Part shown: positions 23,209-26,163 of the stretch, one piece after another
Layout: each line of letters opens with the position of its first letter
How positions within the stretch are numbered: position 1 is the first letter of the stretch
Source: Pseudomonas aeruginosa
GTDB taxonomy: Bacteria > Pseudomonadota > Gammaproteobacteria > Pseudomonadales > Pseudomonadaceae
Assembly: GCF_001457615.1 (NCBI RefSeq)
Contig: NZ_LN831024.1
Span: 4,230,001-4,262,000 of the forward strand
Reading direction: 5' to 3'
Length of the DNA: 32,000 nucleotides
The notes under the pieces: generated by a model
Databases searched by the model: none
Told to the model about the DNA's origin: nothing
What the model saw: only the letters and a program-made list of their open reading frames with translations
Translations under genes and position numbers: made by a program

Positions 23209-25266
23209 TCAGATATTGGTGCTCGCCGGGATCCGGCTCGGCAACAGGTACTCGTAGGGCCTGCGGCGCGCCTGGTTGCGCGTGCGAATGGTCGCCTCGA
23301 CCTCCTTCAGGCGTGCCTGGAAGCGCTCCAGCGGGCCGCCGCTGGCGGTCACCCGCCTGTCCGAAAACACCGGCGCGTAGGGGAACCCGGTCTGCCGGTA
23401 GTCGCCCAGGCGACCGTGGTAGACCGAACCGAGCAGGTGATAGATGTTCACCTTCTCCAGCGCCACCAGGGTCGGCGGCATCATCTTCAACCAATCGGCC
23501 TCGCTCTTGCCGCCTGGCGAGTCCGGTGCCGGCGCCGCGCTCATGGCACAGATGGCTGGTGCGTAGGTCATCATCGAAGGCTGGGGAAAATTGACCGCCG
23601 CATGCTGCGCGGAGGCAGTGAAGATCACCATGGTCAGCACCTCGACCAGTTGGCTGCGACCGGTGATCGGGCGGAACCCGGCCACCTTGCCGCTGCCGAT
23701 CACCTCGCCGACCCAGGCCGCCAGTTCGACGTCAGCGGTGACGTCGCCGTCGCTGGCGTAGTACACCGCCACGTAGTCGGCCGCCCACTGGCGGATGGCA
23801 TTCCATACCAGCAGGCCGTCGTCGCGGTAGGGGTAGTCCGGTAACGCGGCCGGGTCGTCGACGTTCCGCGCCTTCAGGCTCTCCGGCAACATGCCGCGGT
23901 AGAAGTCGAAACCCAGCCGGTTGCCGCCGGCGGTGGCCTGGGTGTCCTGGATCGGCGCGGCGAACATCACGTCGATGAAGCCCGCGCTGGGCAACAGGAT
24001 CCGCGCCGCCCCCTCGTTGATGAACAGGGTGCCCTCGAAGTGCGGGGCGAGCAGGACGTGCAGCGGATGGCTGGGCGCCAGGGTGCGCTGGGTGGCCAGG
24101 CAGAACGCCTCGCTCACCAGGTGGGTCTGGGCCAGGTGGACGAACATCTCGTGGTAGTTCTCCTCGGCGACCTGGACCACCGTCTTGGCCATCTGCCAAC
24201 CCCAGTACAGATCACTCTCCGACTCCGCGGGACGCACGAACATCGGATGGGTAGCGGGGTCCTGGCCGCACTGGATGGCCACCGGCAACAGCCTCGCCCG
24301 ATCCTTGCCAAGGGCGAACAGGGCGATCGGCGCATAGGCGAAGCCCTTCCCGGTGAGCAGTTTGTCCACCGCTCCCGACGGCGCCAGCTTGCCCAGCTCG
24401 GCGTAGTCCAGCAGGTACAGGCGGCGGCTGGCGGCGGCCTCCAGCAAGCTGTCGTCGGCGCCCATCACCCGGCGGAACTGCTCTTCGCCCAGCGGAAAGT
24501 TGGCCGGCAGCGCATCGACGCGGCGGATCAGCAGCGGATTAGGCCCGGCCACCCGCCAGTAGGCGAACGCTTCGTCGTCACGGAAGCTGTCGGCGACCTC
24601 CGGCAGGCGCAGGGTGCCGAACACCGCGCGGAAGCGATTCAGGCCGTCGCCCTGTCCACCCTGGGTAACCAGGTTGCTGGCGCTCTTGAGGATGTCGTCG
24701 ACCAGCAGGCCGACCCGCGTCAGCAAGGCGATCACCCGCGTCTGCAATTCCGTGAAGCGCAGCAGCAGGCTGCCGGCCGCGGCCGGATCGTTCTTCGCCT
24801 CCTCCAGCAACGCCTCGTGGACCTGGCGCGCCGCTTCCAGATCGCCGCTGAGCCCGGCGGCGATCCGCTCGAACTGCGCGGCGGCCGACGCCGGCAACGA
24901 GGCGACGAAATTGACGATCAGCTCGACGATCACCCCGGCGGTCTTCAACAGCCAGTCGACATTCGGCAACTCGCCCAGCGGCACCGAGCGGGCCATCGGC
25001 ACGCCTTTGACATTGGCGAAGTTCTCGGTCCAGACATATACCAGTTTCTTGCTGGTCAATACCGCACGCCGCGCCAACTTTCCGGCCAGGTTGTCATATT
25101 GCGGCAAACTCGGCGGAATCAGGTTGTCCAGCAAACTTCGCGAGGCATCGATAGATCGCTGTTGTTCCGCCCCGAGGTATTTCAAGGGCGAAAAGAATAT
25201 CGAGTCATTGGCCAGTGCGGTTCCACTCAGGGCGACACCCGACAAGAGCACACTCCTGCGTTTCAT
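23209..25266 (-). CDS. loxA: Secreted arachidonate 15-lipoxygenase LoxA
   Basis: 685 aa with a signal peptide ([19 protein letters not shown]). The lipoxygenase iron-ligand region reads [17 protein letters not shown]...HAAVNF, and the C-terminal ...IPASTNI ends in the Ile iron ligand. GGAG SD is present. Confidence 0.93.
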
Positions 25267-25298
25267 ATCATCGACTCCATCAATGCATTAACCAGGAA

Positions 25299-25324
25299 CG
25301 ACTCGATGCCTGAGCATCGAATCG
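25299..25324 (-). other. Hairpin in the 77-nt spacer between the leader-peptide ORF and loxA
   Basis: CGAcTCGATGC-ctga-GCATCGAaTCG forms an 11-bp stem with one mismatch. It is not followed by a clean U tract, so it may be an attenuator or processing element. Confidence 0.35.
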
Positions 25325-25343
25325 CTCTTTCAACAGGTTGCGA

Positions 25344-25664
25344 TCAGCTGTAAAGCCCTTCGCCGCTTTCCTTGTTGTAATGCAACGGAACATTGTGGTT
25401 GTCGGTCCCGCCGAGAATCTTGCCGACGGTGATCGCCGCCACCGAAGGCACCTGGAAGGCCAGCAGGTCGACCAGCTCGTGGGTACGGTTGAGGCCGATG
25501 GCGCTGGCCGCGTTGCCGATGCTGGAGAACAGCGGCGAGTTCAGGAAGGAGTTGGCCGCGTAGACGCCATTGATGATGGCATCGCCCAGGAAAGTCCCGG
25601 CGCCAGAAACTTGTTCGATTTCACCCACACTTAGAACCGCCAGGGCATTCACCTGATTTTTCAT
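25344..25664 (-). CDS. 106-aa peptide with a double-glycine-type (bacteriocin/microcin) leader; function unknown
   Basis: GGAG lies 8 nt upstream of ATG 25664. The N-terminus MKNQVNALAVLSVGEIEQVSGA/G matches LSxxELxxIxG(G/A). The core is rich in Gly/Ala/Ser/Asn, hydrophobic and lacks Cys. Codon use in the leader is atypical for this genome. Confidence 0.65.
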   Translation of the reverse strand: MKNQVNALAVLSVGEIEQVSGAGTFLGDAIINGVYAANSFLNSPLFSSIGNAASAIGLNRTHELVDLLAFQVPSVAAITVGKILGGTDNHNVPLHYNKESGEGLYS

Positions 25665-26163
25665 GTCTGAATCTCCACGTATTCAAATGATCGAAACGAA
25701 TGGTTCTCGCTGAAAACAGCAAAGAAACCTGTACGTCCGAACTTCTTCGGAACGTGGAGAAAGCAATAGCGAGAGGAAAAACCGGCAATAAGCTGACGCT
25801 TCGCACAGTTGACAGGAAAAGCCTGGAACAATAGTTATCCACAATAATTATTGACGGCGAACTTTTGACTTGCAAAGAACTACGCTGGCCAGCGGCAAGA
25901 GTGAATTTCATCCAGCCAGGGCTATACCAATCGTGCAAAACCGAAAGGGCGCTGCGCAAAACGTCACATTTATTCGGGACGATACGCCAAGGCGGTTCCC
26001 TGTACTGAAGTACCAGAATCGCCAGATCGCGCGGCCTATTTCCCCTTGGAAAAATACGGATATTTTTTTCCGGGCCAGGTTTTCCTTCTTCCGCGCCTGC
26101 CAGATCTGGCAGTTGCGAAGCGCCACGACAACGCGAAGTCCGCGGCGCAGACGCCTCGACCGC

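Follow-up and report, generated by a model that had tools for sequence, protein, structure and literature searches.

Genomic context and coding status of PA1168

The DNA analysed here, referred to as the window, is a 32,000-nucleotide (nt) stretch of Pseudomonas aeruginosa (assembly GCF_001457615.1, contig NZ_LN831024.1, positions 4,230,001 to 4,262,000), and its point of interest is PA1168, a small gene immediately upstream of loxA (PA1169), which encodes a secreted 15-lipoxygenase. An earlier reading made from the sequence alone (the sequence-only reading) had taken PA1168 for an orphan gene encoding a double-glycine (GG)-leader peptide of the microcin or class II bacteriocin kind. We find that the leader is conserved across a family of small proteins whose genes are repeatedly linked to lipid oxidases, and that the product is probably cargo of a secretion system encoded elsewhere in the species. 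The features on which the argument rests are the following.

25344–25664, reverse strand: PA1168 precursor gene, 106 codons plus stop, ATG start; match to the family hidden Markov model (HMM) at E=8.7e-34
25599–25664, reverse strand: double-glycine leader, codons 1–22 (MKNQVNALAVLSVGEIEQVSGA), conserved in 54/54 relatives, with predicted cleavage after A22
25347–25598, reverse strand: predicted 84-amino-acid (aa) mature core, an acidic, Cys-free helical bundle according to AlphaFold2 and the family alignment
25673–25676, reverse strand: Shine-Dalgarno sequence GGAG, 8 nt 5' of the PA1168 ATG, read from the sequence
25267–25343, reverse strand: PA1168–loxA spacer, 77 nt, with no intrinsic terminator called
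25296–25327, reverse strand: intercistronic hairpin with a 14-bp stem and 4-nt loop and no U-tract (RNA fold -29.4 kcal/mol, z=-3.48)
23209–25266, reverse strand: loxA (PA1169), an open reading frame (ORF) with a signal-like N-terminus, annotated as a lipoxygenase family protein

The small ORF lies on the same strand as loxA and 77 nt upstream of it, as first described, and its product is the 106-aa protein Q9I4G9. In a near-identical record the surrounding annotation runs from napA through a TerC family protein, a 'lipoxygenase family protein', a 'hypothetical protein' and a polysaccharide lyase family 7 member; 'hypothetical protein' is the only annotation that PA1168 carries, as the sequence-only reading had supposed, and the identical sequence is present on at least 1000 contigs. 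PA1168 is a core gene of the species. Against a 75%-identical ortholog from an organism of 52% GC content (locus L016), the proportions of nonsynonymous (pN) and synonymous (pS) differences were 0.175 and 0.78, the latter saturated, and the same comparison for the lipoxygenase gene gave equal values (pN 0.18, pS 0.895); PA1168 is a real gene under purifying selection as strong as that on lox. It is also translated, since the protein was found by mass spectrometry (MS) in outer-membrane-vesicle (OMV) preparations of strain PAO1 with 35.85% coverage (PMC6347270 supplement), which by our calculation corresponds to 38 of 106 residues in the tryptic peptides 61–82 and 83–98.

The sequence-only reading had also placed the gene in the only low-GC stretch of the window and noted rare codons in the leader. 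The codons (CTA, AGT, GTT, TCT, CAA and GGT) are present, and GC content at third codon positions is 0.455 in the leader, 0.847 in the core and 0.88–0.92 in neighbouring genes. A trough does exist, the lowest-GC bin of the window being 25601–26000 (0.475), but it consists mostly of the upstream intergenic region and the leader codons, while the gene as a whole stands at 0.586.

Two database oddities concern this gene. Four 'variants' of PA1168 (P0006, P0010, P0012 and P0013) are frameshifted or chimeric translations that share its N-terminus and then run into an unrelated tail; they most likely stem from errors of assembly or sequencing and do not represent natural isoforms. Further, an 846,886-bp P. 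aeruginosa conjugative 'plasmid' record (L001; NZ_CP131792.1, 311247–327947) contains this housekeeping region, with napA, loxA, ndvB, dapE and tcdA; this replicon looks like a large chromosomal segment, or is chimeric or mis-assigned.

A family of small proteins with a conserved leader

A word-indexed search with PA1168 returned copies in P. aeruginosa and P. paraeruginosa only. An exhaustive phmmer search followed by a profile search recovered approximately 70 relatives at 32–51% identity from Acinetobacter, Serratia, Rhodoferax, a Hyphomicrobiales metagenome-assembled genome (MAG) and metagenomes, and the 54 full-length members among them were aligned. In a limited literature search we found no description of this PA4139/PA1168 family, nor any link between it and GG leaders, nor any paper in which the PA4139 or PA1168 sequence is printed.

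Counting back from A22, the leader residues proposed in the sequence-only reading were all recovered: V(-4), I(-7), E(-8), S(-11), L(-12) and L(-15). Hydrophobic V19, I16 and L11 at -4, -7 and -12, together with acidic E15 at -8, are the pattern of substrates of peptidase-containing ATP-binding cassette (ABC) transporters (PCATs). When a regular expression for such leaders was run over all six frames of the window, PA1168 was the sole matching ORF; random sequence of equal composition gives 0.155 matches per 32 kb, however, with at least one match in 15% of windows, and by itself the motif is therefore weak evidence. It becomes strong because it is conserved across all aligned relatives: the consensus M..EL...E[IV]..VSG[AG] occurs in 54/54, every one ending in GG or GA, with E15(-8) and G21(-2) invariant and L11(-12), V19(-4), S20(-3) and A22(-1) at 90% or more. 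This conservation vindicates the claim of a true double-glycine leader. The PA1168 leader has 22 aa and ends in G21-A22 (the family medians are 17 aa for the leader and 84 aa for the core), and cleavage would be expected after A22.

The core was described correctly as 84 aa long and Cys-free; it has an isoelectric point (pI) of 5.3 and a grand average of hydropathy (GRAVY) of 0.25, and family cores in general likewise lack Cys, with an acidic median pI of 5.1 and moderate hydrophobicity. Near-invariant residues are N38, L41, N42, S47, G50, H62, D66, G85, G86, H95, Y96 and E99, and PA1168 conforms to the signature that follows the GG leader in the family, N-x3-N ... SS.G ... H-x3-D ... LGG ... 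HY-x2-E. With the 54-sequence alignment as input, AlphaFold2 predicted helices at 13–41, 44–55, 59–83 and 95–101 (predicted local distance difference test (pLDDT) 90.6, predicted template-modelling score (pTM) 0.73), compared with a pLDDT of 45 from the PA1168 single sequence, and a Foldseek search of the model against the PDB gave no match below E=4. The model depicts a small, conserved protein with a defined fold, which does not fit a hydrophobic peptide under loose constraint. Two near-invariant H-x3-[D/E] pairs (H62/D66 and H95/Y96/E99) fall in predicted helices 3 and 4, with each pair lying along a single face of its helix, and may form a metal site, perhaps for folding after export. The C-terminus, ...HYNKESGEGLYS, has no Ser/Gly-rich tail of the kind that marks siderophore attachment in class IIb microcins.

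A paralog in the PA4139–PA4144 exporter cluster

The sequence-only reading had reported no C39 exporter or membrane-fusion protein (MFP) near the gene, and tblastn of the 32-kb window for homologs of PCATs, MFPs and outer-membrane factors (OMFs) indeed returned none. It had also pointed to a CvaA/CvaB-like set around PA4142–PA4144, and this proved right: the cluster encodes, in order, the 99-aa PA4139, the 597-aa cholesterol-oxidase-like PA4140, the 99-aa TesG (PA4141), the MFP PA4142, the C39-peptidase ABC transporter PA4143 and the OMF PA4144. In one of the P. aeruginosa loci recovered (L009) the order reads, by domain, peptide, FAD_binding_4/Chol_subst-bind enzyme, DUF5862 peptide, MFP, Peptidase_C39-ABC and OEP. 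An exporter encoded away from PA1168 thus exists in the species, and its peptidase carries an intact catalytic motif: the PA4143 N-terminus contains CvaB-type Gln/Cys, His and Asp motifs, namely QTEATECGLACLAMI, with the catalytic-Cys motif ECGLAC, followed by HWNFNHFVVL and LHDPA. A Cys/His/Asp triad distinguishes active PCATs from C39-like domains (PMC10233263), and a PCAT whose C39 domain has this triad was found in the P. aeruginosa loci L008 and L009, which establishes its presence at the level of the species.

PA4139 (Q9HWP2, 99 aa), the first gene product of this cluster, aligns to PA1168 in BLASTP with 44% identity (E=4e-22). Its N-terminus reads MQLATLQELSFDEIDQVSGA up to the leader end and continues as GLFSFVGDAIVD..., and the leader ends of the two proteins (EIEQVSGAG in PA1168, EIDQVSGAG in PA4139) are identical at 8 of 9 positions. 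By these alignments PA1168 is clearly a paralog of PA4139, and the description of the gene as an orphan therefore holds for its distance from the exporter but not for its ancestry.

TesG has a GG leader of its own (MKELNDIEVTCVSGG, followed by T) and a Gly-rich DUF5862 core (E=1.8e-21). We considered homology between PA1168 and TesG and rejected it: BLASTP of PA1168 against TesG was not significant, and PA1168 has no DUF5862 match. PA4141 has been identified as tesG (PMC12646011), and according to the later accounts of Zhao 2019 in PMC12646011 and PMC11959726, TesG is secreted by the genetically linked downstream type I secretion system (T1SS) under Rhl quorum-sensing control.

Family members are usually encoded beside lipid oxidases

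An Acinetobacter-like locus (L002) carries the peptide gene followed by genes for an FAD_binding_4/Chol_subst-bind enzyme, an MFP, a Peptidase_C39-ABC transporter and an outer-membrane factor, and searching with its oxidase led to the P. aeruginosa PA4140 ortholog and its locus. The same cassette, in which genes for the cholesterol oxidase, the MFP and the PCAT follow that for the peptide and an OMF gene may or may not be present, recurs in P. aeruginosa, L002, a Rhodoferax MAG (L025) and a wastewater contig (L026); the peptide and cholesterol oxidase genes are also adjacent in L003 and L004, and a rearranged cassette surrounds the peptide gene in Serratia and in L012/13. In 14 further cases peptide and oxidase lie on one contig, judged by the equal size of the longest contig, among them A. 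colistiniresistens, where the neighbouring tags are F889_00899 and F889_00900. Altogether, family genes occur inside PCAT/MFP operons in at least five lineages, and in cassettes with a single GG peptide the PA4139/PA1168 family member is the sole candidate cargo.

With lipoxygenase in place of cholesterol oxidase, the peptide gene lies directly upstream of the enzyme gene in P. aeruginosa, in P. paraeruginosa (L017) and in L016, the 52%-GC organism, which has different flanking genes. This swap of enzyme with gene order kept points to a functional coupling. The oxidases mostly bear Tat-type signals of their own (SRRSFLG in PA4140, and PRRQFF and DRRAFL elsewhere), and together with the signal-like N-terminus of LoxA these suggest that enzyme and peptide would leave the cell by separate routes and could meet only outside. 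Neither the window nor any of approximately ten distinct loci has a conserved small ORF of an immunity-like kind next to the peptide gene.

Two observations were made on individual loci of this set. In L016 the lipoxygenase (485–2437) begins at the counterpart of LoxA residue 39, with an in-frame stop upstream; it has no N-terminal signal peptide, and the GG-leader gene is kept. In Serratia-type clusters (L010 5901–6113 and L012 5961–6155, both on the reverse strand) a further and unrelated peptide with a GG leader, MRELNSTEVQHVNGA..., carries PPVC(E/K)PKPPVC repeats at its C-terminus and is encoded between the AraC regulator and the PCAT, a position analogous to that of TesG in P. aeruginosa.

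Intercistronic hairpins and expression

The spacer hairpin is kept in P. paraeruginosa (L017 5940–5971) with two pair-improving changes, G.U to A-U and U.G to C-G. In L016 (412–443) a 14-bp hairpin of unrelated sequence is followed by a U-tract, and comparable hairpins occupy the peptide–cholesterol oxidase spacers of L009 (2610–2638) and L002 (1349–1379). Indeed, every family member examined has a strong hairpin 3' of the peptide gene, unrelated in sequence between lineages; Rfam gave no match anywhere in the window. Such a layout is the usual one where a small structural peptide is made in large excess over the downstream products, and it may serve this purpose here.

Published datasets bear out the co-transcription with loxA that the sequence-only reading had proposed to examine, and show that the two genes are co-regulated. 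PA1168–PA1169 are described as an operon whose transcription drops when cyclic di-GMP (c-di-GMP) is lowered (PMC8271024), and both genes go up together in a tpbA mutant (PMC2691606). In a rubB mutant the fold changes are -26 for PA1168 and -40 for PA1169, and -71, -34 and -64 for PA4139, PA4140 and PA4141 (PMC12431658). PA1168 and PA4139 are both within the top five induced genes of a pipA dataset (PMC10874727), and both are among the most repressed genes in lens-conditioned corneas (PMC11643048). At the protein level, tobramycin raises PA4141, PA1168, PelB and PA4139 more than any other protein of the OMV proteome (PMC6347270). PelC and CdrA are also among the most vesicle-enriched proteins after this treatment (PMC6347270 supplementary tables). 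Since the three GG proteins are enriched together with PelB, PelC and CdrA, the T1SS cargo appears to be part of a c-di-GMP/biofilm response to the aminoglycoside.

A model for PA1168 and its alternatives

We consider it probable that PA1168 is a leader-dependent cargo of PA4142–PA4144, exported in trans and acting extracellularly with LoxA, and not an antibacterial microcin. A promoter in the AT-rich upstream region would drive PA1168 together with loxA, the intercistronic hairpin probably holding the peptide mRNA above the loxA mRNA. The C39 domain of PA4143 would then bind the leader helix and cut after Gly21-Ala22, and the 84-residue acidic core would be pumped outside in one step, fold there into a small helical bundle and act with LoxA at lipid or membrane substrates. 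We infer export through PA4143 from the near-identical leader ends of PA1168 and PA4139, their paralogy, the location of family genes within PCAT operons and the way in which the three GG proteins behave alike. Extracellular action with LoxA is the most likely role because the family is tied genetically to separately exported enzymes that oxidise eukaryote-type lipids; what suggests a partnership of PA1168 with LoxA in particular is solely their conserved gene order.

Several results weigh against this model. An expression cassette with loxA only gives secreted, active LoxA (PMC6702342), and PA1168 is therefore not required for LoxA activity or secretion. Lipoxygenases with 41–54% identity occur without the peptide in Aquirhabdus, five Burkholderia species and a Mycobacteriaceae MAG, from which we conclude that the peptide–lipoxygenase pairing is a lineage-specific re-use of the module. 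Similarly, no peptide relatives turned up in Burkholderia or Chromobacterium, both of which have close cholesterol-oxidase homologs, and for two members of the family, both orphans, there is no enzyme gene close by. The MS coverage of PA1168 (residues 61–98) is unable to separate the precursor from the mature form, and OMV pellets can hold cytoplasmic proteins. Curated models, including the GG-leader and bacteriocin HMMs to which the sequence-only reading had looked for support, give PA1168 nothing (no match in Pfam or NCBIfam at E<=10), and the sub-threshold matches of its relatives, to MccV and Bacteriocin_IIc, are limited to the leader. Finally, the exporter locus was taken from P. aeruginosa assemblies other than the window's own genome.

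One may postulate instead that PA1168 is a class II microcin resembling microcin V (MccV), killing competitors with its immunity function encoded elsewhere or not needed. The GG/GA leader, a core length inside the 60–90 aa range of class II (PMC10233263), the Cys-free, Gly/Ala/Ser-rich and moderately hydrophobic core and the weak MccV matches in 16 of the 54 relatives would all suit such a role; the species has a PCAT, an MFP and an OMF, and Bacteroides GG-peptides without immunity genes are mentioned in a review (PMC10233263). The similarity to MccV is confined to the leader, however, with hhalign against CvaC covering just 15 leader columns, and microcin homology of the core was accordingly rejected on this alignment and on the HMM matches of the relatives. 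It is the oxidase, and not an immunity ORF, that is conserved beside the peptide gene in the approximately ten distinct loci, and a core gene found with an identical sequence on at least 1000 contigs is not a strain-variable weapon. The partner enzymes use sterols and polyunsaturated fatty acids (PUFAs), which are largely lacking in bacteria; co-regulation is with Pel/CdrA-type biofilm functions and not with iron starvation; and the sister cargo TesG is reported, in those accounts of it that we draw on, to be host-directed. A limited literature search found no reports of antibacterial activity of the PA1168 core. We therefore regard a microcin as unlikely and do not retain the toxin reading first attached to this gene, given the lack of an adjacent immunity gene and of core similarity, the lipid-oxidase neighbour and the species-core distribution.

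Another scenario keeps the export and drops the partnership: PA1168 would be a host-directed effector acting alone, as TesG does, and its adjacency to loxA would reflect shared regulation only. Its presumed exporter and its regulon behaviour are those of TesG, LoxA works without it, and orphan family members exist. In most loci examined, however, the peptide gene lies directly upstream of the oxidase gene with only a hairpin between them, and the replacement of cholesterol oxidase by lipoxygenase within an unchanged gene order points to a functional coupling; we regard this scenario as quite unlikely. More improbable still is that PA1168 is not exported at all, the 'leader' being the start of a structural helix in a cytoplasmic or inner-membrane protein with a function in, for example, LoxA maturation or regulation. 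AlphaFold2 does draw a continuous helix (13–41) over the predicted cleavage site, and the hydrophobic stretch 67–85 (Kyte–Doolittle value, KD19, 1.57) is a borderline membrane helix, but GG leaders are expected to be helical anyway and the conserved positions coincide exactly with those recognised by C39 peptidases. The joint presence of PA1168, PA4139 and TesG in vesicle preparations also speaks for export, and the PCAT/MFP operon contexts in particular make a non-exported role very unlikely.

Our model of an exported partner of LoxA admits a more specific version, which we regard as doubtful. The family would comprise new type-I-secreted accessory factors, whose helical bundle, once PA4143 has removed the leader, would bind or perturb eukaryotic membranes and present esterified PUFA or sterol to LoxA or cholesterol oxidase; within this version, metal bound at the two H-x3-[DE] motifs might stabilise the bundle. 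PA1168 would thereby control LoxA peroxidation of host phospholipids and link the TesG system to LoxA-dependent virulence. In mammals, PEBP1 is a small protein that partners 15-lipoxygenase (15-LOX) and redirects it to membrane phospholipids, and PA1168 would be its counterpart, a role of the kind to which the gene linkage points; the parallel is a functional analogy only, as PEBP1 and PA1168 have no sequence or structural relationship.

Comparison with known systems and implications

The closest likeness is to PA4139, which belongs to the same family, shares the core motifs and, almost entirely, the leader end, and is co-regulated with PA1168 and co-detected in vesicles; as with PA1168, its gene directly precedes that of a secreted lipid oxidase, and a hairpin lies between the two; PA4139 sits beside the exporter and a cholesterol-oxidase-like enzyme, whereas PA1168 is remote from the exporter and beside a lipoxygenase. 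TesG, from the same organism and only 99 aa long, likewise has a GG leader and co-varies with PA1168, and PCAT-type T1SS secretion and quorum-sensing regulation are described for it in the secondary accounts cited above, but its core is unrelated. The MccV system (CvaC with CvaA, CvaB and TolC, and Cvi) resembles PA1168 and its presumed exporter in leader length and pattern, PCAT triad, MFP, OMF and core size, and differs in that PA1168 has no immunity gene or core homology, an unlinked exporter, a lipid-oxidase partner, a predicted acidic bundle and a species-core distribution. Mcc17978 of Acinetobacter baumannii (mcaABCD), which we compared by description only, is a microcin-type secreted peptide outside Enterobacterales from a genus that also has the PA4139 family; in contrast to PA1168, its locus includes a cupin-like immunity gene but no oxidase, and it is under iron regulation.

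LoxA has attracted study as a virulence factor rewiring the lipid signalling of the host, yet PA1168, co-transcribed with it, has so far received no attention; promoter fusions of the main LoxA paper extend across PA1168, and the paper makes no mention of the gene. If PA1168 is cargo of the TesG system, that system would export at least three small proteins (PA4139, TesG and PA1168), two of them wired to enzymes that attack eukaryotic lipids. In chronic infection, secretion under quorum-sensing and c-di-GMP control would thereby be linked to the oxidation of cholesterol and to the action of lipoxygenase. GG leaders, PCATs and TesG are already known. A limited literature search found no prior account of the cholesterol-oxidase cassette, of its transfer to a lipoxygenase or of the gene upstream of loxA as T1SS cargo. 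The analysis defines a conserved peptide/cholesterol oxidase/MFP/PCAT cassette in Gamma- and Betaproteobacteria and suggests that Gram-negative GG-leader/PCAT systems serve purposes beyond bacteriocin export.

Features of the upstream region

Three further features lie upstream of PA1168.

25764–25872, reverse strand: conserved upstream block, ~93% identity between P. aeruginosa and P. paraeruginosa, with flanks at ~55%
25847–25875, reverse strand: predicted sigma-70-like promoter (TTGCAA, 17 nt, AATAAT), in or at the conserved block
26097–26112, no strand assigned: perfect 16-bp palindrome CTGCCAGATCTGGCAG (context AACTGCCAGATCTGGCAGGC), 51 nt past the PA1167 stop and 433 nt before the PA1168 ATG

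The conserved block also contains a weak FleQ-box-like sequence, GTCAGCTTATTGCC, at -133, and is a candidate site for the c-di-GMP- and strain-dependent control of loxA that the LoxA literature leaves unexplained. A comparison of the regions upstream of PA1168, PA4139 and PA4141 yielded shared words at chance level only, and no Anr box. The palindrome has one exact match in the window and is present in a second strain; in P. paraeruginosa it is degenerate but retains CT-N12-AG, the form we take to resemble las/rhl boxes. It could mediate LasR/RhlR control of PA1168–loxA, as reported for tesG, or be the stem of a PA1167 terminator.

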